Virus genome (UHGV): UHGV-0165226
Origin: a virus
DNA: 35,880 nt
Direction: 5' to 3' (one strand)
How positions within the stretch are numbered: the stretch's first letter is position 1; each line of letters opens with the position of its first letter. The translations under genes and the position numbers were made by a program. Below the pieces are notes generated by a model that was not told the origin of the DNA, searched no databases, and saw only the letters and a list, made by a program, of their open reading frames with translations. Shown here one piece after another: positions 10 to 28,215 of this stretch.

Positions 10-29
10 TTGTGTACATTTGTACACAA
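10..29. promoter_or_regulatory. Near-palindromic operator-like site upstream of the TetR regulator gene
   Basis: Sequence TTGTGTACA-TT-TGTACACAA read at 10..29, an 18/20 inverted repeat just upstream of the ATG at 50. TetR regulators are commonly autoregulated through such palindromes. Confidence 0.3.
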
Positions 30-49
30 TTGCAGAGAGAGGAAATGAC

Positions 50-586
50 ATGCGTCGCGCTAACGATCCGCAACGGCGAGAAAAAATTATCCAGGCCACG
101 CTGGAGGCGGTGAAACTTTACGGAATACATGCTGTTACGCACCGCAAAATTGCTACCCTTGCCGGGGTACCGTTGGGATCGATGACCTACTATTTTTCAG
201 GAATTGATGAGTTGTTGCTGGAGGCGTTCAGCAGTTTTACTGAGATTATGTCCCGGCAATATCAGGCATTTTTTAGCGATGTTAGTGATGCTCAAGGCGC
301 ATGCCAGGCTATCACCGATATGATCTACAGCTCACAGGTTGCAACGCCGGATAATATGGAGCTGATGTACCAGCTCTACGCGCTGGCTAGCCGAAAACCG
401 CTATTAAAAACGGTAATGCAAAACTGGATGCAGCGCAGTCAGCAAACGCTCGAACAATGGTTTGAACCCGGAACCGCCCGCGCGCTTGATGCGTTTATTG
501 AGGGGATGACGCTGCATTTTGTCACCGACCGTAAGCCGCTATCGCGCGAGGAGATTTTGAGGATGGTTGAGAGGGTTGCAGGGTAG
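50..586 (+). CDS. rcdA: TetR/AcrR-family transcriptional regulator (host gene flanking the prophage)
   Basis: In-frame ATG at 50 after a GAGAGAGGA purine run; 178 aa; N-terminal HTH region ([39 protein letters not shown]). Sequence and length match my recollection of E. coli RcdA (YbjK); the symbol is from memory and unverified. Confidence 0.8.
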
Positions 587-690: not shown

Positions 691-1743
691 TTACGGGGTA
701 ATGCCAACCGCTGCCGCCACTTTGTCGCCACTTGGCAGCGTTGCCAGAGGATTGAAACGGAGCGCCGTTTCTAGATGATCCGGTGCCAGATGTGCGTAAC
801 GCATAGTCATTTTTATATCGTGGTGTCCGAGAATTTTTTGTAAGGCCAGAATGTTTCCACCCGACATCATGAAGTGCGCCGCAAACGTATGGCGCAGAAC
901 GTGTGTGAGTTGACCGCGAGGGAGCACGATAGACGTTTTTTCCATCACGGATAAAAATTGAAAATAGCAGTCTGTGAAGAAATTGAACCCATCAAGCGCC
1001 ATGATCTCTTCGTAAAGCTCTTTACTGATAGGGATGCTTCTGTTTTTCTTCCCCTTCGTTCTGACAAAGGTAATTCGGTATTTGGTCACCTGTGAGCGGG
1101 TAAGATTTACGGCTTCACGCCAGCGTGCGCCTGTGCTTAAGCATATCTTAACTACCAGTGCCAGAATTGGGTCCTGACGTTTGCAATCAGCCAGCAATTC
1201 AACAATCTGCTCATGGGTAAGCCATGCCATCTCTTTTTCTGCGATGGTGAATTTTCGCATGTTCTCCAGTGGGTTCGGATACGACCATTCGCCCAGACGG
1301 GATAGTTCGCTAAAAACACTACTTAGATAGCTTTGCTCCAGGTTAATGGTGACCGGGCTTGCTCCTTTCTTCCATTTCTCGCTGAAGTAGATCTCGCCTG
1401 TCAGGCGTTTATCTCGATAGTGGGCAAACATTTTAGAGGTGAGATCGGTTGCAAGAGGATTGCCCAGAGCGTCAACCATCAACAGCAATTTGTCATAGAC
1501 ATGCTGCCCAGCTGTCAGAGATTTACCATGTAGTTTGAACCATAGCTCAACCACGTCTTTCAGTGTTCGACGATCCACTGATTCACCCAGCCAGGGCTTT
1601 GCTTCGGTTTCTTCCATCGTGTGGCGCTCAAAAGCCAGTGCTTCGCCTTTGGTAGCGAATTGTTTACGCACACGACGCCCACTTCGTCCGGCGGGGTAAC
1701 ATTCGCAAAGCCATTTCCCTGTGGTTAGTTTTCGTACTGCCAT
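691..1743 (-). CDS. int: Tyrosine integrase, P2 Int-like
   Basis: 350-aa ORF. N-terminus has the P2 Int-like pattern (GRSGRRVRKQFATKGEALAFERHT); C-terminal catalytic region (HVLRHTFAAHFMMSGG...LGHHDIKMTMRYAHL) carries the tyrosine recombinase R-H-R-Y signature. Sits at the prophage edge, transcribed toward the junction. Confidence 0.92.
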   Translation of the reverse strand: MAVRKLTTGKWLCECYPAGRSGRRVRKQFATKGEALAFERHTMEETEAKPWLGESVDRRTLKDVVELWFKLHGKSLTAGQHVYDKLLLMVDALGNPLATDLTSKMFAHYRDKRLTGEIYFSEKWKKGASPVTINLEQSYLSSVFSELSRLGEWSYPNPLENMRKFTIAEKEMAWLTHEQIVELLADCKRQDPILALVVKICLSTGARWREAVNLTRSQVTKYRITFVRTKGKKNRSIPISKELYEEIMALDGFNFFTDCYFQFLSVMEKTSIVLPRGQLTHVLRHTFAAHFMMSGGNILALQKILGHHDIKMTMRYAHLAPDHLETALRFNPLATLPSGDKVAAAVGITP

Positions 1744-1825: not shown

Positions 1826-3502
1826 CTAAGCAACATGTAGTTCATCGTTGGCGGAAGTGGCTGCTTTGCGCTCCTGCTCAATAGCTAGAGACTCTCTATA
1901 TTCTTTCGCCTCTGCAAACATTGTCCAGTGGGCGTTGATGTTCATGTCTTCAATAACTGATTTGATTTCTTTTAAATTTACGTTAAAAAACTCTTTTCGT
2001 GAGTTAATTTTATTGACCTGCTTTTCGTTGAAAACTTTATGCAGATGGTTTTCTAATGATGGTGCATCATCACTATAAATCATCGCATGAACATCGAACG
2101 AAAAAGGAACACTAGCATCTCCGAGTTCACGAACACGATCAAGTGGTTCAAGGCGGCGTGTCATTCCAATTTTATATACATCTTCGCCAAATGAACCAAT
2201 ATTACTAATGATATAGACGTGGCCTGATCTGGTTTGTTGAGCCATAGAAATAGCTCGTTGATTTTTAGCTTCAGCTTCTTCATATTTTAACTGTAGTTCA
2301 GCTATTTTTTGCTCTAAAGCTAAGCGTTGTTCTTCATTTGCAAGCATAAGTTCTTTCGTTGCTTTATTTATAGCTTGCTGAATAGCTTTTTCTTCTTTTT
2401 CAGCTTCTTTTATCGCTTTTTCATATTCTCTACGAGCTCTTTCCTCTTCACGAAGCTGTTCTTTAATCCTTCTTTGCTCTTCTTTTTCTTCGAGCATAAT
2501 TTCATTAACTGCTACACCCCATTTTAGCTCGTTGAGTCTTGCCTGAAGATAGATGTCACTTATTTTTGCGGACCTAAAGGCAGAGCCATTGTAATTTACT
2601 AGTTGAAATGCATCTTTTATTTCTTGGGAAAGTTTTCCAAAATTGTTGTGTTTGACTTTTGATAAAATACTGTCAACTCTTCCATTGAAGGCATCCAAAA
2701 CAAAGTTTATGGCAGTATTACGCCTGTTTTGCTCAACATAATCACACGAAGCAGCTTTATTAGTTTTTATTAATGATTTGGTTAACTCTCTGGCTTTTTG
2801 TAATTCCTTGCCTGCATCTGTAAATTCATAATTTTCTGCCAGCTCATCAAGTACACTACGGTTAGGGATGATCCATTCATCACCATAACCTTCAATTTTA
2901 TTTTTCATTGATTTTGCAACTGCTTCATATTTTTCTGCAAACTCTTTAGCTTCATATGCTGAACCAGCAATCTCCTTTGCTCTTTCTTCTGCATCAGAAA
3001 TAATTTTTACTGCATTGTCATTAGCATTTGAGATTAGCTCATTTGCTTTATTATTAGCATTATCAAGACGTTCTTTGGCTTTCAGGCGTGCATCGCGAGC
3101 GTCTTTGGTGATTGCTATAGCTTCGCTATTAGCGTTGCTTATTGTCATCTGAGCTTGATAATTTGCTTCGTTTACTGTTTTAGCCGCCTTAATTTGGGCT
3201 TCATCTATTTTTTGCTTGGCTATTGAGTCCGCATTTTTTATCTTATTCTCTGCATCCATTACTGCGCTGTGCAATTCTTCGTATTGCCACAATGGTGCTG
3301 CTCGCCCTTCAAGCTCTGATAATTCTCGTACGGTCTGTGCTAGTTTTTCTTGATTTTCAACCAGTTGGTTAGAAAGGGCTATGTTGTTAGCTGTCAGGTT
3401 ATCTATAGCCGCTTTGTGTTTTTTACTTTGTTTAAATAATATTACAGCTAGAACAGGGGCGAGAAATGCTAATAAGAGTATAACGATGGCAAATGAATTC
3501 AT
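1826..3502 (-). CDS. Cargo protein: N-terminal transmembrane anchor, long coiled coil, C-terminal T5orf172/GIY-YIG-like domain (DUF4041-type architecture)
   Basis: 558-aa ORF, ATG at 3502 with AAGGA upstream. Hydrophobic N-terminus (FAIVILLLAFLAPVLAVILF), about 300 aa of K/E/A-rich heptad-like sequence, then GHVYIISNIGSFGEDVYKIGMTRRLEPLDRVRELGD...FDVHAMIYSDDAPSLENHLHKVF, which resembles the T5orf172/MUG113 motif. Strongly AT-rich relative to neighbours. Confidence 0.75.
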   Translation of the reverse strand: MNSFAIVILLLAFLAPVLAVILFKQSKKHKAAIDNLTANNIALSNQLVENQEKLAQTVRELSELEGRAAPLWQYEELHSAVMDAENKIKNADSIAKQKIDEAQIKAAKTVNEANYQAQMTISNANSEAIAITKDARDARLKAKERLDNANNKANELISNANDNAVKIISDAEERAKEIAGSAYEAKEFAEKYEAVAKSMKNKIEGYGDEWIIPNRSVLDELAENYEFTDAGKELQKARELTKSLIKTNKAASCDYVEQNRRNTAINFVLDAFNGRVDSILSKVKHNNFGKLSQEIKDAFQLVNYNGSAFRSAKISDIYLQARLNELKWGVAVNEIMLEEKEEQRRIKEQLREEERARREYEKAIKEAEKEEKAIQQAINKATKELMLANEEQRLALEQKIAELQLKYEEAEAKNQRAISMAQQTRSGHVYIISNIGSFGEDVYKIGMTRRLEPLDRVRELGDASVPFSFDVHAMIYSDDAPSLENHLHKVFNEKQVNKINSRKEFFNVNLKEIKSVIEDMNINAHWTMFAEAKEYRESLAIEQERKAATSANDELHVA

Positions 3503-3522: not shown

Positions 3523-4119
3523 TTAATTCGAGACTATTGTACTTCTTATACAAGCAACCACTTCAATATCAGAAAATGCACATTCAAAGCTATTCTCTGC
3601 TGTTGTAATTTTAATCATTCCTTTAGGAAGCCTTGTGATTTTTCGAATGGAATAGGTTCCGTCGATATTGATTAACCAGTTTCCATCAAGTACTTCAGAA
3701 AATTTTTGATCACAAATGTATGTGACGAGTCCATCCTGAACAACAATTGGTGATGAAAGGTTTGCAGGAAGAAATGATGAATCGAAGACATATGAACCGT
3801 CTTCAATCATTTTGCCTGCGGCAAGGCGAAACTTAACAAGCTCTTCTGTAGCTGCTGTCAGCGAGCTTTGCTTAAGGCCTTGTCCGGTAGTTAACCATTT
3901 GAGGGAGGTTCCTGTTTCAAGAGCACATTGGATTATCCAGTCAGCAGGAAATGTATCCCGCAAATACCTGTTCGCTAGTGTGCTTTTTGATACTTCCAAG
4001 TGATCAGCTAAAGCCTGTCGTGTCGTAAAGCCATAGGCTTCGACTAATCGCTCAATCGCAGCCTTACCACCTTTATTGGGATTTATTTTGATCTCACTTG
4101 GGTACTTTGATGTTGACAT
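3523..4119 (-). CDS. cI: Immunity repressor, phage 186 CI-like
   Basis: 198 aa, similar in size to 186 CI (about 192 aa) and unlike P2 C (99 aa). HTH-like region (TTRQALADHLEVSKSTLANRYLRD) plus a C-terminal domain. Divergent from the apl/cII operon. Confidence 0.8.
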   Translation of the reverse strand: MSTSKYPSEIKINPNKGGKAAIERLVEAYGFTTRQALADHLEVSKSTLANRYLRDTFPADWIIQCALETGTSLKWLTTGQGLKQSSLTAATEELVKFRLAAGKMIEDGSYVFDSSFLPANLSSPIVVQDGLVTYICDQKFSEVLDGNWLINIDGTYSIRKITRLPKGMIKITTAENSFECAFSDIEVVACIRSTIVSN

Positions 4120-9885: not shown

Positions 9886-10119
9886 ATGCGCATTGAAATA
9901 ATGATCGATAAAGAGCAGAAGATTAGCCAGTCTACCCTGGACGCCCTTGAATCCGAGCTTTACCGCAATCTGCGCCCCCTGTATCCCAAAACGGTAATTC
10001 GTATCCGAAAAGGTAGCTCTAACGGTGTGGAACTGACCGGACTGCAACTGGACGAAGAAAGAAAACAAGTGATGAAAATTATGCAGAAGGTGTGGGAAGA
10101 CGACAGCTGGCTGCATTAA
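9886..10119 (+). CDS. DinI-family protein (Tum/DinI-like, SOS-induced)
   Basis: 77 aa starting MRIEIMIDKEQ...LDALESEL...VWEDDSWL, resembling DinI (MRIEVTIAK...); ATG at 9886 with GAGGTGA upstream. The ORF frame is open back to 9814. Confidence 0.75.
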   Translation: MRIEIMIDKEQKISQSTLDALESELYRNLRPLYPKTVIRIRKGSSNGVELTGLQLDEERKQVMKIMQKVWEDDSWLH

Positions 10120-10125
10120 GAAACG

Positions 10126-10160
10126 TTGCTGGCATCAGTACTTGATTCTGAAGCCAGCAA
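10126..10160. terminator. Hairpin between the convergent DinI-like gene and the cargo operon
   Basis: TTGCTGGC (10126..10133) pairs with GCCAGCAA (10153..10160), with an extra CAG/CTG pairing inside the loop. No strong U-tract. Confidence 0.4.
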
Positions 10161-10208
10161 GGTTGAACAACGAGCAGGGCGAGGCGTTAGTGTTATCATC
10201 AAAGAATT

Positions 10209-10766
10209 TCACATAAACATCTGGATTTGCTCGTTTTTTAGTTGGTTGATTTTTTCGCGCAATCTGATCTTTTCATCAGCTTTTTCCAAAGAGGCTGGTG
10301 ACATGCAGTTAATCAAAGCGTCAAGGTGCTCTGGAGATTTGATAATAAAGAACTTTTTGTATTTATTAACAAAAACGACAGAGCATTTTTTACGTTTAAG
10401 AAGCTCAATCACGTTACTCAGAGTACCCGTGCTCTTCGTATCCCAAACCATTAATCCATAATCGGCTTCTTCTGCCATTTTGAGATCTTTCGCAGTGAAA
10501 AACGCGCGAGTGCCGGCTGCATGGCTAGTACTTACTACATGTACAGGCCATGAGCCAAGATTATTGCGCGGTTTTTCTGAGCTACTGAATACTGTGGCTT
10601 TTTTACATCCAAGTTCTAGCAATACGCGTTGAACAGATGAATCAACACCATTGGCATCACCAACTACAATACGAAAACGCGAGTTAACAATTTTTTTCAG
10701 ACGATCCACGATGAGTGTGTCAAGGTTTTTGATGGTTATTGAACCAGCAACAAATACCGTAGTCAT
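10209..10766 (-). CDS. SLOG/DprA-LOG-like Rossmann-fold protein (cargo operon, gene 2)
   Basis: ATG at 10766 with GGAG 6 nt upstream, 2 nt after the stop of the PRTase gene; about 185 aa. Core VFVAGS...IVVGDANGVDSSVQRV...ATVF resembles the glycine-rich nucleotide-binding loop of DprA/Smf/LOG (SLOG) proteins. AT-rich. Confidence 0.7.
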   Translation of the reverse strand: MTTVFVAGSITIKNLDTLIVDRLKKIVNSRFRIVVGDANGVDSSVQRVLLELGCKKATVFSSSEKPRNNLGSWPVHVVSTSHAAGTRAFFTAKDLKMAEEADYGLMVWDTKSTGTLSNVIELLKRKKCSVVFVNKYKKFFIIKSPEHLDALINCMSPASLEKADEKIRLREKINQLKNEQIQMFM

Positions 10767-10768
10767 CA

Positions 10769-11350
10769 CTATCTCCAAGTCAAAGCTGCAACATAAATGC
10801 TTCTAACCTTAGTATAATCGTTTAGCACAGCACAAGCAGCCTCCATAGATGCGCCTGTATGGTAGAGGTCGTCAATGATAAGGACATTCCAGTTGCCATT
10901 ATTCTCAATACTGTCATTAACAGAGAACGAATTACCCAGCGCCGTGATTTTCTCTTCTTTTGTATTCAGGTTCTTTAGCGAAGCCCCGCCGGGGGCTTTC
11001 AACAAGAGGTCATCGAAGCATGGTTTGCCAACTAGTTTGGCTAGTTCCTGAGCTATTTCGGTCACTGGCTGGCGTGCACGCTGATTAGATGCAGCCATTG
11101 GAACGATAAACCCGACATTGCTGAAATGAGGAAAGGCATGCTCTGCTAGGCATTGGGCTAAAGGCTTAACTTGTGACCAATCGTCACGGTATTTAAGCTG
11201 GAAAAGAGATTCGCCTACCTCAGTACGCTCAGTCTCAAACCGCATATGTCCCCACTCATCGTAACCAATGGGAATGCTGCGGATGCTGTGTTTATCCATC
11301 GCAAGACCTAATTCCCAATTTCCAACAATCTGTTTTATGTTGACTTTCAT
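10769..11350 (-). CDS. Phosphoribosyltransferase (PRTase)-like protein (cargo operon, gene 1)
   Basis: 193 aa, ATG at 11350. C-terminal NVLIIDDLYHTGASMEAA matches the type I PRTase PRPP-binding loop (hydrophobic run, two acidic residues, T-G-A-S). No N-terminal Cys4 zinc finger. Confidence 0.75.
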   Translation of the reverse strand: MKVNIKQIVGNWELGLAMDKHSIRSIPIGYDEWGHMRFETERTEVGESLFQLKYRDDWSQVKPLAQCLAEHAFPHFSNVGFIVPMAASNQRARQPVTEIAQELAKLVGKPCFDDLLLKAPGGASLKNLNTKEEKITALGNSFSVNDSIENNGNWNVLIIDDLYHTGASMEAACAVLNDYTKVRSIYVAALTWR

Positions 11351-11614
11351 GGCTCACCGTTTGCTGTGTAAAACACCAAAGATTACCTCTTGTTATATTT
11401 GGTGAAAGCGAAAGTTTCATTTTTTGCAGTGGAGATCAAATGTTACTCCGTGAACATTTTTAGCATGTGGCCTCGCTACACGGTTTGGCGTAACTACTGC
11501 ATGTCTATACTGCATGAATCCGCATGATCGTTTAAGGATCGCTCTAGTTGGGGCCTGCTAGGTATGGCGGGCTTTTGCTTATGTCATGCAGGTGCATGAA
11601 AACCACTATATAAA

Positions 11615-11645
11615 GCGGGCAGGCGTGGCGGGGATACGAGCGCGC
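11615..11645. other. Candidate cos (cohesive-end) site
   Basis: GGCGTGGCGGGGATACGAGC at 11622..11641 resembles the 19-nt cohesive ends of 186 (GGCGTGGCGGGGAAAGCAT) and P2 (GGCGAGGCGGGGAAAGCAC) as I recall them. Memory-based; not verified. Confidence 0.35.
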
Positions 11646-11717
11646 GCATTGATTTCAAAAGATGAAATCAAGTGGTACGATAAGTAGGATTACTACCAAT
11701 TCTCAAAGGGATGTCTC

Positions 11718-13415
11718 ATGCATAGAATTGTTAAAGCTCATCTTGATAACTTCGTGAAAAGTCACGGTATTGAAAATCATCAAGAGGACACGCAGTTCGA
11801 GCTATTTTGTAATAAAGCTTTGCTGTCTTCTCGTATAAGTATGGATTATGAAATTGACGATGTAACAACCGGGGCTGGTGATGATGGCATGGATGGTGTT
11901 GCCATCATAATTGATGAAGAATTGTGTATATCTTCTGAAGATGCTACTTCAATATTTTCCTCATTACGTAAAAATCATGATGTTGATATTGTTTTCATTC
12001 AATCAAAGCGTAGTGAGTCTTTTGATTTAGGTGATTTTTTAAAGTTTAAAGCTTCCGTTTTTAGATTTATAGAGGATTCTCCTTACTTATGTGTGGATGA
12101 AATTCAAAAAAATGCAAGGGAAGTTTTTGATGTCATAATAAAAAATGTACCTAAGATAAGAGGTGGGCGACCAACTTTTACTGCTAAATATGTTGCAACT
12201 GGTTTATATAAAAAACCTAAAGAGTTAGAGAATGCTCGGAAGTTATTTGCAAAAGAAATTGACGAGTTGGGATATTTCTGTAATGTTAGCGTTGAGTTTG
12301 TTGATCGTGATGAATTAACACGTACTTGGATTGATACTTATTCAGTTGTCAATGCTGAATTGCCATTATTTAGTAATGCACCACTTCCCAAAATTAATGG
12401 TATAGAAGAAGCTTATCTTGCTGTCGTTAAAGCAAAGGATTTTGTTGGTAATTTATTGATGACGGACGAGGGGTCTCTCCGTAATCATGTTTTTGTTGAG
12501 AACGTCCGGGCGTTCTTGGGAATTGATAATCCTGTTAACGCATCGATTGCTGAGACAATTAAAAATAAAGATGCCGCTTCACGATTTCCTGTTTTAAATA
12601 ATGGAATAACAATTGTTAGTCCGGATGTAAAACTTCAAGGGAGTATTTTACATCTAGAAAATTTTCAGATAGTTAATGGCTGTCAGACATCAAATGTGCT
12701 TTACGAATGCCGCGATTCCTTAGATGATACGATGATGGTTAACTTGAAAGTCGTAGAGACATTAAACGAAGATGTTTTTTCAGAATTGGTTCGAGCGACT
12801 AACAGTCAGACTAAGGTTGATGAGACTCAGTTCTATTCTCTTCGTCCAATAATAAAGAAAGTAGAAGCGTACTTTGATACTTATGAAGGGCAGGATGGTC
12901 GTTTATATTTAGAAAGACGTGAAAGACAATTTATCGGTAGAGATATACCTGCAGTTAGAGTATTTTCAGTTCATATGGCAGCTAAATGTGTAGCAGCTAT
13001 GTTCTTCCGTCGGCCAGATCTTTCATATAGATACCCTAAAAAAATGTATGAATTGTTGGCTGAGAAAATATTTTCTAATGATACCAAGGAGATTGTATTT
13101 TATTCAGCATGTTTAACATTATATAGATTACACTTACTTACTTCTAATGCTGATATTCCACAAAATATCAGGAAGTATAAATGGCATTTAATGGCGGTAG
13201 TTGGTGCTTTAATTGCCGGAAAGGATGTGCCTAATTTTGGCTCTAAGAAAATGGATGCGTATTGTAATAAAATCATCACTGAAATGACAAAGCATGGTGA
13301 TAAAATAAAAGCTACTTTCCAGAAGGCTGTTGATATTGTTTTGTCAATTGATGATATCACTGATGATAGAATGAAAAGGCAAGCTATTTTAGAGGAAATG
13401 CTTGCCAAGATTTAA
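11718..13415 (+). CDS. AIPR-family (abortive-infection phage-resistance-like) protein
   Basis: 565 aa, ATG at 11718. Central motif VLNNGITIV...FQIVNGCQTS matches the AIPR family signature (NG...QT). Very AT-rich. Confidence 0.75.
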   Translation: MHRIVKAHLDNFVKSHGIENHQEDTQFELFCNKALLSSRISMDYEIDDVTTGAGDDGMDGVAIIIDEELCISSEDATSIFSSLRKNHDVDIVFIQSKRSESFDLGDFLKFKASVFRFIEDSPYLCVDEIQKNAREVFDVIIKNVPKIRGGRPTFTAKYVATGLYKKPKELENARKLFAKEIDELGYFCNVSVEFVDRDELTRTWIDTYSVVNAELPLFSNAPLPKINGIEEAYLAVVKAKDFVGNLLMTDEGSLRNHVFVENVRAFLGIDNPVNASIAETIKNKDAASRFPVLNNGITIVSPDVKLQGSILHLENFQIVNGCQTSNVLYECRDSLDDTMMVNLKVVETLNEDVFSELVRATNSQTKVDETQFYSLRPIIKKVEAYFDTYEGQDGRLYLERRERQFIGRDIPAVRVFSVHMAAKCVAAMFFRRPDLSYRYPKKMYELLAEKIFSNDTKEIVFYSACLTLYRLHLLTSNADIPQNIRKYKWHLMAVVGALIAGKDVPNFGSKKMDAYCNKIITEMTKHGDKIKATFQKAVDIVLSIDDITDDRMKRQAILEEMLAKI

Positions 13416-13466
13416 TTATACCTTGACATGTATATTAACGTGATTTTTTAAGTTGAATATCTAAGT

Positions 13467-13501
13467 AAAAAGAGTGCTTTTATTGTTAAGCACTCTTTTT
13501 T
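13467..13501. terminator. Bidirectional intrinsic terminator between the AIPR gene and portal gene Q
   Basis: Stem AGAGTGCTT (13471..13479) / AAGCACTCT (13488..13496), 8-nt loop, flanked by AAAA upstream and TTTTT downstream, so it works on either strand. Confidence 0.75.
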
Positions 13502-13502
13502 A

Positions 13503-14540
13503 TTAAGCTAACTCAAGGCTATATGTATTGAATTTAATAATGTCATCTTCTACCCACTCATTAATTTCTTTGATTCTTTCCTGTAAGGGGGTTAATTCGT
13601 TACGGACGAATACCTTGCTGGCTTTTTCAATATCGCCAAATCCACCAGTGTTTTGTGGAATAATGCCCATCATCTGCGGAGGAACTCGATGTGCTGCCAT
13701 CATGTCATCGCGACTGACATTTTTGATATTCAGAAACTCATCCTTCGCCGCGACTTCTGACAACGGGATGATCTGAAGCCCGTCCTTTTTGCCGTTAGGC
13801 GAGTACATAAACAAATTGCGGAAGTTGCCTGGACCTTTGGCACTTTTCATCGCGTTGCGGAGGTTGTTTACATCTTCCTGGTTTTGCGCGGCGTCGGTCA
13901 TGTACATGATGAAGCCTGCATGACTGCCGTTAATGTAATACTTCCGGCGGAACAGCGTGGCGGACTCGTTGAGCAGGGCTGACGGAATGACAGAAAGATA
14001 GCCGGGCAGGCCGTAGATTTCTTGATTAATATCCGGCTCCATCAGGTGAAAAATGCTGCCTTTCGTGAACTGATACGGCTGCGTGGTCATGCCGTATTGC
14101 ACAAACCAGTAGGTATCCAGGTCTAACCCGCGTCGGGTGTATTTTGCCAGCGCAGGCTCAAGGGCGATAACTTCACCGAATCGGTTCGTGCGTTTCTCCA
14201 GGTAGGCGTTACCAAATACCAGATAGTCCTGCACAAAACGCGAAAAAGCCTGCTGGCTGAGCAGCGGGTGGGGGATGTAGGTACTGGTCAGAATGTTGCA
14301 TTTCACCGCAATTGGTGAACTGTGATGCACGGCGGCGCGGAAGGTGCGCGCCAGTCCGTCAAAGCTTACTGGCGGCTCATACCAGCGATCTGTCTGTAAG
14401 CATTCCACATAGTCCAGCAGTTCGCGGCGGTCCATAACAGGAACGGGATCACCGAAGCTGAATGCTTCGGCTGTAGTTTGACTTTTATGCTGGATCTGGT
14501 TCGTCGACGCAGCGCGGTTCTTCTTACTCTTTCCCATCAA
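13503..14540 (-). CDS. Q: Portal protein (P2 gpQ)
   Basis: 345 aa, P2 gpQ size; conserved position opposite the terminase gene; 4-bp overlap with P. Confidence 0.92.
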   Translation of the reverse strand: MMGKSKKNRAASTNQIQHKSQTTAEAFSFGDPVPVMDRRELLDYVECLQTDRWYEPPVSFDGLARTFRAAVHHSSPIAVKCNILTSTYIPHPLLSQQAFSRFVQDYLVFGNAYLEKRTNRFGEVIALEPALAKYTRRGLDLDTYWFVQYGMTTQPYQFTKGSIFHLMEPDINQEIYGLPGYLSVIPSALLNESATLFRRKYYINGSHAGFIMYMTDAAQNQEDVNNLRNAMKSAKGPGNFRNLFMYSPNGKKDGLQIIPLSEVAAKDEFLNIKNVSRDDMMAAHRVPPQMMGIIPQNTGGFGDIEKASKVFVRNELTPLQERIKEINEWVEDDIIKFNTYSLELA

Positions 14541-21420: not shown

Positions 21421-21814
21421 AGCGGTGCCTTATGTCCGCAATAACCCGGACAAACTGCATCTGTTTGTGGATAACGGTTCGCTGGTTGCCACGGGGGCCA
21501 GCTCCATGTCATGGGAGTACCGCTATACCCTGAACGTGGTGATAGAGGATTTCAGCGGCGACCAGAATCTGCTGATGGCCCCGGTTTTACTGTGGCTTCG
21601 GGATAACCAGCCCGATGCCATCAATAACCCGGCGTTACGGGAAAAGCTATTCACCTTTGATGTGGATATTTTGCGCAACGATGTCTGTGATATCAGCCTT
21701 AATCTGCAACTGACGGAATGTGTGCTGGTCAGCACTGACGGCAGTGTGTCGAGCGTTGAAGCTGTAGCAGAACCCGATGAACCTGAAGAAATGTGGACGG
21801 TGAAACGTGGCTGA
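21383..21814 (+). CDS. R: Tail completion protein (P2 gpR)
   Basis: Resembles P2 gpR (SLRHAL...NPDKLHLFVDNGS...RYTLNVVIEDFSGD). Start uncertain: GTG at 21383 has AGGAG 7 nt upstream; the track start at 21362 is TTG without a clear SD. Confidence 0.8.
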   Translation: MNKPQSLRHALNKAVPYVRNNPDKLHLFVDNGSLVATGASSMSWEYRYTLNVVIEDFSGDQNLLMAPVLLWLRDNQPDAINNPALREKLFTFDVDILRNDVCDISLNLQLTECVLVSTDGSVSSVEAVAEPDEPEEMWTVKRG

Positions 21815-22256
21815 ACTGCAGAAGGTGGACGACTGGCTGAGTGCCTTGCTGGCGAATCTGGAACCAGCCACGAGAAGCCGCATGATGCGCCAGCTGGCGC
21901 AGGAACTGCGCCGGACACAGCAGCAGAATATCAGGATGCAGCGCAATCCAGATGGCAGCAGTTATGAACCGCGCAGGGTAACAGCACGCAGCAAGAAGGG
22001 GCGCATCAAACGTCAGATGTTTGCAAAGCTGCGCACGACAAAATACCTGAAAACTGCCGCCAGCGCCGACTCTGCCAGTGTACAGTTTGAAGGCAAGCTG
22101 CAGCGCATTGCCCGCGTTCACCATTACGGCCTGCGAGATCGCGTCAGTCGTAAGGGACCGGAGGTGCGTTATGCAGAGCGGCAGTTGTTAGGTTATAACG
22201 ATAAAATTTTGTCATTATCGCAAGACGTATTATTACGTGCTTTGGTTGATAGCTAA
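21807..22256 (+). CDS. S: Tail completion/virion morphogenesis protein (P2 gpS)
   Basis: 149 aa (P2 gpS is about 150), GTG start overlapping the R stop. Confidence 0.8.
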   Translation: MAELQKVDDWLSALLANLEPATRSRMMRQLAQELRRTQQQNIRMQRNPDGSSYEPRRVTARSKKGRIKRQMFAKLRTTKYLKTAASADSASVQFEGKLQRIARVHHYGLRDRVSRKGPEVRYAERQLLGYNDKILSLSQDVLLRALVDS

Positions 22257-22261
22257 GCTAA

Positions 22262-23131
22262 TCAAAACAATCTCAATAAATTATGATCAATCGTAAGCAA
22301 GTTGGAGATAACAAGTTTGTTATTATCAATATTGAATTTTTCTAATATTGCTGCTACAGCACTGGGGTAAGGTTGTGAAGCATATGGAGAAATGTATATT
22401 TTTTCGATTAGCTTTACAGGATCTGTTTTTATTCTTATCCCTTTGGGAGTATAGTTTTCGATGTCGCTATTAATAATTTTTGGTGTTATGGATAAACGTA
22501 CTTCATTTTCATGTGAAAAAGCTTTTCGTTTTAAAAAAGGAACCATTCTTCCGTTCACGACGCAATCTTCAGATGTTAGTTTTTCATCGAAATAATCAAT
22601 GTATTTTACTTCACTAATAGAGATAATCTCTTCAGATTGAAGTGAATCTATCAAGCGTGATATTGATGTTTGAATTGCTATTCCTTTGTTAGCATCTGAA
22701 TACAAACGCCACATTCCTTCTGACTCATGTTCATTTTGATGCCAACAATTCACTGTGACGGAGTTTAAAATCTTAAAATAGATAGATTCTATTTTTGGTA
22801 ATTGTGTATCCATCATTGTTTGCAACTTGGTGATTTCTGTTTCGGCTTTTTCATTAGAGATTCTGCCTAATAGTTCGTTTTCCCTGATACGCTCTACGGT
22901 ATCATTGAAATATGATTGTATATCATTAAACTTACTTTTGACGATGCTTGCCCACGCATTTAAGGCAACCTTAGGTAATAACCCCTCATATGGATCGCTA
23001 TTGCTGTAAGAACTAAGAGGAGAAAAATATAGCTCTTCTCTGGATAATATATCGATGAATTTATCAAGAGACATATAGCGCCACAGTTTTGTTTCAGGTT
23101 TTAAATTTGGACTAATTTGGAATTTATTCAT
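22262..23131 (-). CDS. Cargo protein with DUF2971-like N-terminal region, at the P2 orf30 site between S and V
   Basis: 289 aa on the strand opposite to the late operons; very AT-rich. N-terminus KLWRYMSLDKFIDILSREELYFSPLSSYSNSDPYEG resembles the DUF2971 signature as I remember it. Confidence 0.7.
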   Translation of the reverse strand: MNKFQISPNLKPETKLWRYMSLDKFIDILSREELYFSPLSSYSNSDPYEGLLPKVALNAWASIVKSKFNDIQSYFNDTVERIRENELLGRISNEKAETEITKLQTMMDTQLPKIESIYFKILNSVTVNCWHQNEHESEGMWRLYSDANKGIAIQTSISRLIDSLQSEEIISISEVKYIDYFDEKLTSEDCVVNGRMVPFLKRKAFSHENEVRLSITPKIINSDIENYTPKGIRIKTDPVKLIEKIYISPYASQPYPSAVAAILEKFNIDNNKLVISNLLTIDHNLLRLF

Positions 23132-23147
23132 TGTTTTTTATCAGCAT

Positions 23148-23165
23148 TGTATAGTGAGTGATACA
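23148..23165 (+). promoter_or_regulatory. Ogr/Delta-type late promoter element (TGT-N12-ACA) upstream of V
   Basis: TGTATAGTGAGTGATACA with CATAAT (23185..23190) downstream; V starts at 23213. Confidence 0.45.
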
Positions 23166-23212
23166 AACCGCAATATTTATACTTCATAATCACCCCATGT
23201 CAATCTATAGGC

Positions 23213-23791
23213 ATGAACTCACAACTCACAGAAATCATGCGCCTTATCACCAATCTGATCCGCATAGGTGTAGTCACCGAAGTGGACCGGGAAAACTGGC
23301 TTTGTCGGGTGAAAACGGGCGACCTTGAAACCAACTGGATTAACTGGCTGACGCTGCGCGCGGGTAATGCCCGCACATGGTGGCGACCATCGGAAGGTGA
23401 GCAGGTGGTGCTGCTGAGTCTGGGCGGCAATCTGGAAACCGCCTTTGCGTTACCCGCCATCTATTCGAATCAGTTCGCGCCACCGTCGACGTCGGCGGAC
23501 GCCTGCGTGATAGAACATCCTGACGGTGGCTGGTTTGAATACGAACCCGCCACCGGGCGCTGGTATGTCAGGGGCATCAAATCAATGGTCATTGAGGCCG
23601 CTGACAACATCACCATGAAAACCAGTGAGTTTGTACTGGAGGCTGACCGCACGCGTATTAACAGCGAAGTGGTGATCAATGGTGGCGTTACCCAGGGCGG
23701 CGGTGCGATGAGTTCTAACGGGATTGTGGTTGATGCGCATCAGCATACTGGCGTCCTGAAAGGCGGCGATACAACCGGAGGCCCGGTATGA
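23213..23791 (+). CDS. V: Baseplate spike/assembly protein (P2 gpV)
   Basis: 192 aa; resembles P2 gpV (ELETNWINWLTLRAG...WWRPSEGEQVVLL). Confidence 0.9.
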   Translation: MNSQLTEIMRLITNLIRIGVVTEVDRENWLCRVKTGDLETNWINWLTLRAGNARTWWRPSEGEQVVLLSLGGNLETAFALPAIYSNQFAPPSTSADACVIEHPDGGWFEYEPATGRWYVRGIKSMVIEAADNITMKTSEFVLEADRTRINSEVVINGGVTQGGGAMSSNGIVVDAHQHTGVLKGGDTTGGPV

Positions 23792-25640: not shown

Positions 25641-27058
25641 GCACAAAATTTTATACCCTGCTGACGGATATTGGTGCGGCGAAACTTGCCAGCGCCGCCG
25701 CGCTCGGTGTGCCTTTAAAAATTACCCATATGGCGGTAGGCGATGGCGGCGGAACATTGCCAACGCCGGACGCAAAGCAGACAGCATTAGTAAATGAGAA
25801 ACGCCGGGCTGCGCTGAATATGCTGTACATCGACCCGCAGAACAGCAGCCAGATTATTGCTGAACAGGTGATCCCTGAAAACGAGGGCGGTTGGTGGATA
25901 CGTGAAGTGGGCCTGTTTGATGAGTCCGGGGCATTGATTGCCGTGGGCAACTGCCCGGAAAGCTATAAGCCGCAACTGGCTGAAGGCAGCGGGCGTACCC
26001 AGACCGTGCGTATGGTGTTGATTACCAGCAGCACGGACAATATCACCCTGAAAATCGACCCTGCCGTAGTGCTGGCAACCCGCAAGTATGTGGATGACAA
26101 GGCACTGGAGCTGAAGGTGTACGTGGATGACCTGATGGCAAAACATCTTGCCGCACCGGACCCGCATTCACAGTATGCACCCAAAGAAAGTCCGACGTTT
26201 ACCGGAACCCCCAAAGCGCCAACGCCAGCGGCGGGAAATAACACCACGCGGATTGCGACCACTGAGTTTGTTCAGGCCGCTATTACCGCTCTGATTAACG
26301 GTGCGCCAGCCACGCTGGACACACTGAAAGAAATTGCCGCAGCCATTAACAATGACCCGAAATTCAGCACCACCATTAACAATGCGCTGGCACTGAAAGC
26401 TCCGCTGTCGAGTCCCGCACTTACCGGAACGCCAACAGCACCTACTGCGGCACAGTCGGTCAACAATACACAGATTGCCACCACGGCTTTTGTGAAATCA
26501 GCAATTGCGGCAATGGTGGGTTCTGCCCCTGCGGCACTGGATACACTGAATGAACTGGCGGCGGCGCTGGGGAATGACCCTAACTTTTCAACAACAGTGC
26601 TTAATGCACTGGCAGGCAAACAACCGCTGGACAATACGCTGACTAATTTGAGTGGAAAGGATGTTGCCGGTCTTCTCGCATACCTTGGTTTGGGAGAAGC
26701 GGCAAAACGGGACGTGGGAACAGGGGAAAATCAGATACCGGATATGGTTTCATTTAGTGGTGTGAGGGATTTTTATGGAAAACAACTTTTGCCAGGAGGG
26801 TTGATACTCCAGTGGCTGACGATTCCATCAAGTGCAGCAGTCAAAGCTGTAACACTGGATAATGGTAATTATCAGCTGTCAGGCTATAAATGGCCCCAGT
26901 CATTTGGTGTCCTGTTTGCTGTGTTTGCCACAAAAGTTTCTGGCTCGACTAACGAAGCATACGCAATCTCAGTTAATCGTCACTCTACCGATGTAATTGT
27001 CACCTGGAATGCCCGTAAGGCTGATGATGTCCATATTTTAGGAATTGGGAAATTATGA
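25637..27058 (+). CDS. H: Tail fibre protein (P2 gpH-like); the C-terminal portion from about 26686 lies inside the invertible segment
   Basis: 473 aa; conserved gpH N-terminus ([18 protein letters not shown]...), then variable repeats. The reading frame continues across the left crossover site. Confidence 0.9.
26685..26709. repeat. Left 25-bp inverted repeat and crossover site of the invertible tail-fibre segment
   Basis: TTGGTTTGGGAGAAGCGGCAAAACG; its exact reverse complement is at 28193..28217. The outer edge resembles a Hin/Gin hix/gix-like site. Confidence 0.8.
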
Positions 27059-27474
27059 AAATGAAATGGTCCCCATCTGTTCAGGGATTTTTCTCTGAAA
27101 ACAACAGCGATATTCCCGATGATGCTTTCGATATTGAAGATGCTCTTTATTATGAACTTATGAATGGTCAGAGTACGGGGAAAATTATTATCAATAGCCC
27201 GGATAACTACCCTGTACTTACTGAATATCCAGCGAAGACACATGAGCAGGAAATAGCTGAAGCGGAGGGAATGAAAAATATACTTATTGAACAGGCCAAC
27301 GATTATATGAACAGTAAACAATGGCCTGGTAAAGCGGCTATTGGCCGGCTGAAAGGTGAGGAACTGGCACAATATAATTTGTGGCTGGATTACCTAGACG
27401 CACTGGAACTGGTCGATACTTCCGGTGCGCCAGATATTGAATGGCCTACACCTCCGGTAACTCAGGCCAGCTAA
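27055..27474 (+). CDS. Tail fibre assembly protein (Tfa, gpG-like), current-orientation copy
   Basis: 139 aa directly after H; C-terminus ...[15 protein letters not shown] is a conserved Tfa motif and resembles the C-terminus of the opposite-strand copy. Confidence 0.85.
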
Positions 27475-27841
27475 TCTCAGGAGCCGTCGAAGTGTCGACG
27501 GCTTTTACTTCTTTTTTGTAGTCCATCCAGGCAGATAGTTTTTCTTTATCTGTACTGCTGATATCACCAAGCATTAATTCCACCCGCCAGTCAGCTGTGA
27601 CATTATCGGCATGAGCAAGTAACTGCATTCGCTGATTTTCAGCACGTGCGACATAATCAATCGCCGGAGATTTCAGTACCGGTAAACCATTTTCATCTGA
27701 CGTGATTAATTTCCCCCCTTCCTGCTGTCCGGCAATTAATTCATTGTATAAGTCTGTACTTATCTCAACAATGTCAGCAGGCATGTCGCTGTTTATACCA
27801 TCAAAGAAAAAACCATTAGTCGATTTTGAGAAATAAATCAT
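27446..27841 (-). CDS. Alternative tail fibre assembly protein (Tfa'), expressed after inversion
   Basis: ATG at 27841 (minus); about 131 aa; C-terminus ...[17 protein letters not shown]; its 3' end overlaps the 3' end of tfa by 29 bp. Confidence 0.75.
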   Translation of the reverse strand: MIYFSKSTNGFFFDGINSDMPADIVEISTDLYNELIAGQQEGGKLITSDENGLPVLKSPAIDYVARAENQRMQLLAHADNVTADWRVELMLGDISSTDKEKLSAWMDYKKEVKAVDTSTAPEISWPELPEV

Positions 27842-27849
27842 AGATATAC

Positions 27850-28215
27850 CTATACACCGATTGCTACCCAAAAACAGGACCTTTCATATTTGACAATTTC
27901 TCCCTGAGATATACCGCCAACAATTATATAGAACTGTGATTTGCTGATATCAGAACAGTTCGCTATGCCCATTGCAGATATACCAGCCACCGACGTTGTA
28001 TGTGGCACAGCCAACAGCGCAAGTGAACGATTTGGGAATGTTACCGGGTAAGTCACCGTATAGTTTGATGCTCCACTGACAATACCCCACTGAATAATCA
28101 GACCTGAAGGGAGTTTTTGAAAACCCGTTGATGAAAGTGAACTGGCAAACGCCGCCATATCCGGAATTTGGTTTTGCTCGTTACCCACATTTCGTTTTGC
28201 CGCTTCTCCCAAACC
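27850..28215 (-). CDS. Alternative tail-fibre C-terminal exon (H' variable part), no own start
   Basis: Minus-strand ORF encoding [20 protein letters not shown]..., which parallels [20 protein letters not shown] in H. It is in frame across the right inverted repeat, so inversion would fuse it to the constant part of H. Confidence 0.7.
   Translation of the reverse strand, partial: GLGEAAKRNVGNEQNQIPDMAAFASSLSSTGFQKLPSGLIIQWGIVSGASNYTVTYPVTFPNRSLALLAVPHTTSVAGISAMGIANCSDISKSQFYIIVGGISQGEIVKYERSCFWVAIGV

Follow-up and report, generated by a model that had tools for sequence, protein, structure and literature searches.

What does a P2-like prophage gain from a single AT-rich gene that lies in the middle of its late region, on the strand opposite to the late operons? 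The question is raised by UHGV virus genome UHGV-0165226, a 35,880-nt stretch of viral DNA (the whole of which is referred to here as the window) representing a P2-like prophage, in which a gene of the DUF2971 family (22262..23131, minus strand, 289 aa, ATG start) is found between genes S and V. The analysis establishes the family of the encoded protein, its predicted fold, its conserved motifs, the cassette nature of the gene, and the presence of bona fide defence systems in the same slot of sister prophages. With about an even chance of being correct, the function of the gene is that of a moron-type, single-gene, abortive-infection defence resembling Aristaios, whose effector would be a DarT-like ADP-ribosyltransferase (ART) kept inactive without an antitoxin.

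Family assignment and predicted fold

The protein matches Pfam DUF2971 (PF11185) at 33.6 bits, above the gathering threshold of 22 (E = 1.1e-7), over the full 89 positions of the model. A preliminary description of the locus, made from the sequence alone, had seen a resemblance to DUF2971 in the N-terminus; the family was right and the location was not, as the Pfam match lies at residues 140-213 and full-length profiles start near residue 13. PHROG 34615, a family of unknown function, aligns with residues 13-277 (E = 2e-42), and four hidden Markov models (HMMs) of the PADLOC candidate PDC-S31 match, with PDLC04993 scoring best (E = 2e-24) and PDLC04990 spanning residues 14-232. PDC-S31, itself a computational candidate for which no publication describing activity was found, is defined as a stand-alone single gene, and one gene is what the cassette contains. 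The protein has 576 database homologues, and an identical protein carries the NCBI/RefSeq annotation "DUF2971 domain-containing protein"; a search of NCBIfam gave no match. The earlier characterization of DUF2971 as an uncharacterised family is outdated, since a bioinformatic study has placed the family among the DarT/AbiGi-like ADP-ribosyltransferases and described for it large helical inserts, an ExE motif, a conserved Tyr and a motif I that varies (PMC12522546), its member Aristaios is a validated anti-phage gene with an ART-like fold (PMC11381338), and PADLOC lists PDC-S31. Aristaios is a 316-aa protein of the Lactococcus plasmid pUCCL641_199 (PMC11381338) with an abortive infection-like phenotype and a block of phage transcription or protein synthesis (PMC13064643, PMC12967558); compared by published description, it shares membership of the DUF2971 family with the window protein.

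In an alignment of 51 homologues with 36-61% identity, the invariant residues were W17-R18-Y19 (within an invariant N-terminal LWRY motif), D46-P47-x-E49-G50, C129-W130, S137-E138, M140-W141, Y144, Y177, K201-R202 and H207-E208-x-E210-x-R212. Among these, Y144 corresponds to the published motif II and E208-x-E210 to motif III, and R18 is invariant within the subfamily. The AlphaFold model (predicted local distance difference test 92.7, predicted template modelling score 0.86) is confident and has a beta-rich core into which a long hairpin of two helices is inserted at residues 54-124; this hairpin is hypervariable (mean entropy of 2.9 bits, compared to 1.1-1.4 bits in the conserved core). DarT was the best and only globular structural match, accounting for six of the seven top Foldseek matches (including PDB 7omv, 7yk3 and 8baq) at weak E-values of 0.03-0.5, while a profile search of PDB sequences returned coiled-coil noise and no DarT match, and the viral fold matches in BFVD were all uncharacterised proteins with uninformative template modelling scores of ~0.33. 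The Foldseek result agrees independently with the published placement of DUF2971 (PMC12522546) and with the ART-like fold of Aristaios (PMC11381338), and the protein is therefore predicted to have a DarT-like ADP-ribosyltransferase core. In the model the invariant residues fall on the expected elements, with R18 in the strand at residues 15-20 and the ExE motif at the start of the strand at residues 210-215, preceding it as the catalytic acidic motif does in DarT; R18, Y144 and E208-x-E210 are the putative catalytic residues.

The same observations could be read as a defence protein that lacks ADP-ribosyltransferase activity and uses the ART-like fold as a scaffold or as an NAD+-, nucleotide- or nucleic acid-binding module, for example in NAD+ depletion or sequestration. 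In its favour, motif I carries an Arg rather than the His of H-Y-E enzymes, the similarity to DarT is moderate, and the mechanism of Aristaios is still unknown (PMC13064643). Against it, neither the Tyr nor the two Glu of the ExE motif varies in the alignment, and R-S-E-type ADP-ribosyltransferases normally have an Arg at motif I, as is known for the superfamily (PMC12522546); the reading is decidedly unlikely.

Likeness to DarT does not extend to the DarTG system. DarT of DarTG is an NAD+-dependent ADP-ribosyltransferase in anti-phage defence, the role predicted here for the window protein as well; the window protein differs in having an Arg in place of the motif I His, a helical hairpin insert of ~70 residues and an extra C-terminal region of ~70 residues. 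Unlike DarTG, the locus holds neither a DarG macrodomain antitoxin nor any second gene between S and V, where the DUF2971 open reading frame (ORF) leaves spacers of only 5 bp and 81 bp, and no DarT match was found in Pfam or PADLOC at E <= 10. Without DarG and without a DarT sequence signature, the window gene is not a DarTG system.

An exchangeable cassette at the P2 orf30 position

The DUF2971 ORF is convergent with S (21807..22256, plus strand; tail completion or virion morphogenesis, based on the ORF and on the Prokaryotic Genome Annotation Pipeline annotation of a near-identical prophage), with 5 bp between the two stop codons, and divergent from V (23213..23791, plus strand; baseplate assembly or spike), which opens the V late operon 81 bp away (spacer 23132..23212). 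As the preliminary description had stated, the site is that of the non-essential Orf30 of P2. In P2 (NC_001895) this 261-aa protein is likewise encoded antisense, between the O-operon terminator and the activator site of the V promoter (pV). The positional analogy is exact, and it extends to low GC content, a non-essential nature and a spacer of ~80 bp with the pV activator site. The two proteins are unrelated in sequence (BLASTP E = 0.9), and Orf30 has no known function and no Pfam or PADLOC match; DUF6216, a common occupant of the S/V slot in Escherichia coli, is likewise unrelated to Orf30. The gene was also correctly said to be among the most AT-rich stretches of the window, with a GC content of 0.326 (compared to 0.586 for S and 0.561 for V) and with the 500-bp bin 22501-23000 (0.342) ranking third lowest. 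By our own estimate, the chance probability of a 289-codon open frame at such a composition is ~2e-10, so the ORF is not a chance product of AT-rich DNA.

Comparison with close relatives indicates that a larger segment is exchanged. Although 49 phage records match the flanks with up to 96.6% identity, none of them holds the insert, and in Escherichia phage 500465-1 S and V are 68 bp apart. In a global alignment with this phage, homology of 95% stops at position 22180, within the last ~25 codons of S, and restarts exactly at the ATG of V (23213). The last ~25 S codons (from ~22181) are AT-rich, and S C-termini vary between cassettes; in the pV region, the TGT-N12-ACA dyad alone is conserved between the cassette and the empty-site relative. 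The loss of homology between these points indicates an exchangeable cassette (22181..23212, GC 0.33-0.41) made up of an AT-rich S tail, the cargo gene in antisense and a pV region, each specific to this cassette. A conserved structural gene, as considered in the preliminary description, would be expected in all relatives; instead, the closest phages (flanks ~96% identical) have S and V adjacent, and of the ~1,066 E. coli genomes in which this S-V region is present only 10 have the gene. By these comparisons the DUF2971 gene is accessory rather than structural.

The S/V slot as a defence hotspot

The survey of E. coli covered 5,426 complete genomes, 10 of which contained the DUF2971 gene with 99.3-99.9% identity. 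In a systematic spread sample of 57 S-V junctions, 32 were empty and 25 were occupied by at least 8 different cargos, including DUF6216, several hypothetical proteins, TIR, FRG, GmrSD, AAA+DUF4435 and AAA+HNH; the comparison of S/V content called for in the preliminary description thus found a variable slot with diverse contents. Several of these were confirmed by PADLOC, namely PARIS (AriA 6e-40, AriB 2e-24), Septu (PtuA 3e-139, PtuB 9e-100), a GmrSD/NsnA-like nuclease, PDC-S15 (FRG) and an ApeA-like protein (pair). Seven of the eight E. coli cargos examined were antisense, the orientation also seen for the DUF2971 gene. Bona fide defence systems combined with high cargo turnover between conserved genes mean that the slot behaves as a defence hotspot. 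Published accounts of P2-like hotspots deal with gpA-gpQ (PMC9122126), with Z/fun (PMC9519451) and with a site that has CI on one side and a tail gene on the other (10.1101/2024.10.15.618418), and a 2026 preprint (10.64898/2026.02.27.708500) refers in general terms to sites "within the late genes" and "downstream of GpL"; the S/V slot is not singled out in these descriptions. Its cassette swaps resemble those at gpA-gpQ and Z/fun (PMC9122126, PMC9519451), and old/tin is a further moron site of P2.

DUF6216 is also present at the S/V junction of BL21, and another E. coli cargo is a 283-aa hypothetical protein without matches. In Klebsiella phage Kp4865-2 the slot contains a sense-oriented 503-aa P-loop protein (locus L002, 2559..4070, plus strand) with a Walker A GKTL motif, weak AAA_7/ORC-CDC6-like Pfam matches and no PADLOC match. 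Such unannotated cargos are candidate new defence genes.

The content of the slot bears on whether the DUF2971 protein might instead be a host-directed ADP-ribosylating effector or lysogenic-conversion factor, acting on a bacterial or eukaryotic target for the benefit of the lysogen and not against phages. Approximately 18% of DUF2971 proteins are predicted secreted effectors, the family having been found through a survey of Legionella effectors (PMC12522546), and toxins, cytolethal distending toxin being one, are known among the morons of P2-like phages (PMC9122126). Yet no family match suggestive of a secretion signal or of partner genes was obtained from Pfam, PADLOC, PHROG or NCBIfam, the slot otherwise holds anti-phage systems, PADLOC lists the family as a defence candidate, and the sole tested DUF2971 member is anti-phage (PMC11381338), making a host-directed effector very unlikely.

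Relatives of the gene and their settings

Homologues lying antisense between gpS and gpV were found in P2-like prophages of Kluyvera (61% identity), Citrobacter (59%), Pantoea (~55-56%) and Yersinia (42%) and in a metagenome contig (47%). Among 40 related loci in IMG/VR, 14 were flanked by S and V (13 antisense and 1 sense). In some of the IMG/VR P2-like contigs (L106, 2383..2964, plus strand, and also L107), a gene for a 193-aa predicted membrane protein without a Pfam match precedes a 55%-identical S/V DUF2971 gene on the same strand, making a two-gene cassette in which it could be either a partner of DUF2971 or a separate cargo. A distant DUF2971 gene with 25% identity (Pfam 26.9 bits) lies in sense orientation between gpS and gpV of a further P2-like viral contig (L134, 2986..3774, plus strand), which points to a second, independent arrival in the slot. 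The identities of the DUF2971 proteins (61, 59, 55, 47 and 42%) follow the same rank order as those of the accompanying gpV proteins (82, 80, 68, 66 and 47%) and are lower throughout, which marks the clade as a long-standing but faster-evolving occupant of the slot. The S/V-resident DUF2971 genes have a GC content of 33-37% in every case, compared to 53-62% in flanking genes (loci L005, L007, L010, L011 and L013 compared with the window); although the proteins diverge in step with the phage backbone, the low GC content seems to have been kept up over time, so that recent acquisition alone would not account for it.

Outside this clade the association with P2 disappears. A scan of species-representative genomes identified 80 loci with DUF2971 homologues, none flanked by S and V, and the association is thus confined to the enterobacterial clade. 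Distant members occur in Pseudomonas, Vibrio, Acidobacteriota and Clostridia and on plasmids of Bacillus and haloarchaea; their neighbours according to PADLOC include ThsA (2e-178), AbiEii, PDC-S01 and restriction enzymes, a qualitative observation from a scan without a control set. In a tblastn search of 50,697 phage records, the sole homologue was a distant one (29% identity) in an Acinetobacter phage, and there was no Lactococcus among the matches listed in a plasmid search.

The persistent AT-richness could also indicate a silent or selfish passenger, that is, a gene obtained by horizontal transfer and held silent (for example by H-NS), or an addiction element of toxin-like character, which brings no current benefit and persists because the slot tolerates inserts. 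In addition to the 33-37% GC content found in every relative, the rarity of the gene in E. coli (10 of 5,426 genomes) and the lack of an obvious ribosome-binding site in the window copy would fit such an element. However, the ORF is intact, its motifs are invariant in homologues down to 36% identity, the same slot has been kept in prophages of Escherichia, Kluyvera, Citrobacter, Pantoea and Yersinia, and, according to the 2026 preprint (10.64898/2026.02.27.708500), few defence genes become pseudogenes and cargo is replaced before it has lost its function. A passenger has, on balance, very little probability.

Expression signals in the S/V spacer

The spacer upstream of the gene was proposed earlier to contain both a promoter for the cargo and the late promoter element of V, and sequence features of both kinds are present. 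A TGT-N12-ACA dyad of the predicted Ogr/late-activator type (23148..23165, plus strand) falls within what would be the 5' leader of the cargo transcript. Five TTGT-N12-ACAA dyads were observed in the window compared to 0.93 expected by chance, three of them at P2 late-promoter positions (16349 for P/O, 23147 for V and 28898 for F). The remaining two (22686..22705 inside the DUF2971 coding sequence and 10..29 at or before the start of rcdA) may be chance matches or extra activator sites. The pV dyad is as far from the start codon of V as the activator site annotated in P2, and it is kept in all S/V loci compared. On the opposite strand, a near-consensus sigma-70 promoter-like TTGACA-N16-TATAAA sequence (23176..23203, minus strand) is predicted to drive the cargo gene. 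This sequence occurs once in the window, compared to a chance expectation of 0.01, and the empty-site relative has degraded hexamers in its place (TTGCCA and GGCAGT), while the TTGACA is kept in the Citrobacter and Pantoea cassettes. By alignment with P2, the -35 hexamer of the cargo overlaps the inferred -10 region of pV.

A promoter and terminator scan called no site in the spacer, because its -10 rule demands a T at position 6, and it found no terminator between S and the cargo. An inverted-repeat search of that junction likewise revealed no GC-rich hairpin, the only palindrome being AT-rich (22195-22218). With neither terminator nor hairpin between the convergent genes, late transcription should run antisense through the cargo. 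Taken together, the features of the spacer would suit a gene that is active in the lysogen and silenced in the late phase of the prophage's own lytic cycle, in line with the antagonism to late transcription suggested in the preliminary description. The window copy of the gene has no obvious Shine-Dalgarno sequence, and the spacers of other S/V cargos contain nothing above threshold, with a promoter score of 11 of 12 positions being reached by the DUF2971 cassette alone. A strong antisense promoter over pV is accordingly unsupported as a general feature of occupied S/V slots.

The orientation and the predicted promoter are also relevant to the possibility that the protein benefits the phage in its own infection, as an ADP-ribosyltransferase for host takeover or anti-defence whose substrate would be host RNA polymerase or a host immune protein. 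There are well-known phage enzymes of this type that reprogram the host, Alt, ModA and ModB of T4 being analogous, and the gene lies within the late region and diverges in step with the flanking phage genes. Nevertheless, it is antisense to the late operons with a predicted promoter of the sigma-70 and not the late type, neither the closest relatives nor any of the 49 matching phage records contain it, and its fold matches DarT and not the Alt/Mod-type enzymes. A role in the phage's own infection consequently appears decidedly improbable. All four alternatives are disfavoured by orientation, slot content, motif conservation or family precedent.

Proposed mode of action

In the Aristaios-like defence favoured here, leftward transcription from the cargo's own sigma-70 promoter in the S/V spacer would supply the protein in the lysogen, where it would remain idle until infection by another phage. 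Because no antitoxin gene is present, the hairpin at residues 54-124, the C-terminal region or both may serve as sensor or autoinhibitor. Once triggered, the site formed by R18, Y144 and E208-x-E210 would use NAD+ to ADP-ribosylate a target, which may be nucleic acid (the substrate of DarT) or part of the gene expression machinery, and by homology with Aristaios the transcription or replication of the invader would be halted in an abortive-infection manner. During the prophage's own lytic cycle, the cargo could be silenced by the binding of RNA polymerase and the late activator at pV and by convergent transcription that continues unterminated from S, and self-targeting would thus be avoided. 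A bolder version of this proposal, in which S/V is a largely overlooked and distinct P2 defence hotspot, each cassette arrives with its own pV, late activation physically switches off an antitoxin-free ADP-ribosyltransferase and the hairpin senses the invader, is unlikely to hold in all its parts.

Other hotspots of the same prophage

The window begins with host rcdA (TetR-type, 20..586) at its left end, followed by int, CI, the replication genes, Q/P, O to S, V to G and the tail genes to D; the Ogr gene lies just outside the right end, as placed in the prophage of GPEC1189 (L003). The S/V DUF2971 cassette is 99.9% identical between these two prophages and most of the backbone is 98-99.7% identical, while they differ completely at int-CI, at gpA-gpQ and in the tail-fibre region (26700..28200). 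Sharing of the S/V cassette despite the differences at int-CI and gpA-gpQ indicates that the hotspots are swapped independently. Between int (691..1743) and CI (3523..4119), the window encodes a 558-aa protein with DUF4041 and T5orf172/MUG113 domains (1826..3502, minus strand; PADLOC PD-Lambda-1, E = 2e-120), a region missing from the otherwise near-identical GPEC1189 prophage. The gpA-gpQ hotspot (10118..13581) contains an AIPR protein (11718..13415, plus strand; PADLOC AbiU, E = 4e-112) and two minus-strand ORFs, one weakly similar to the ShosT/PsyrT phosphoribosyltransferase (10769..11350, 1e-8) and one without matches (10209..10778), which may form a Shosta-like pair; the GPEC1189 cargo at this site consists of a hypothetical protein and a TIR protein.

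Significance

Several elements of this picture are already known, including the RefSeq DUF2971 annotation, a validated defence member of the family, the published ADP-ribosyltransferase prediction, the PADLOC candidate entry and the orf30 moron position. The modestly new elements are the recognition of the S/V slot as a defence hotspot, with PARIS, Septu and GmrSD among its contents, a DUF2971 clade of enterobacteria that has long resided in this slot while still AT-rich, and a cassette in which pV and the predicted cargo promoter overlap. Since published surveys have centred on gpA-gpQ and Z/fun, the S/V cargo, several hypothetical proteins among it, offers a ready supply of candidate systems. 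Should the gene prove protective against phages, it would be the first case of a DUF2971/PDC-S31 defence demonstrated in Enterobacteria, and its product would be a DarT relative that works without an antitoxin, raising the questions of how such an enzyme stays silent and what triggers its activation. The overlapping pV and cargo promoters provide a simple, testable model of how prophages escape their own abortive-infection genes; if the model is correct, a built-in switch between lysogeny and lysis would let a prophage carry an abortive-infection toxin while leaving its own lytic cycle unpoisoned.
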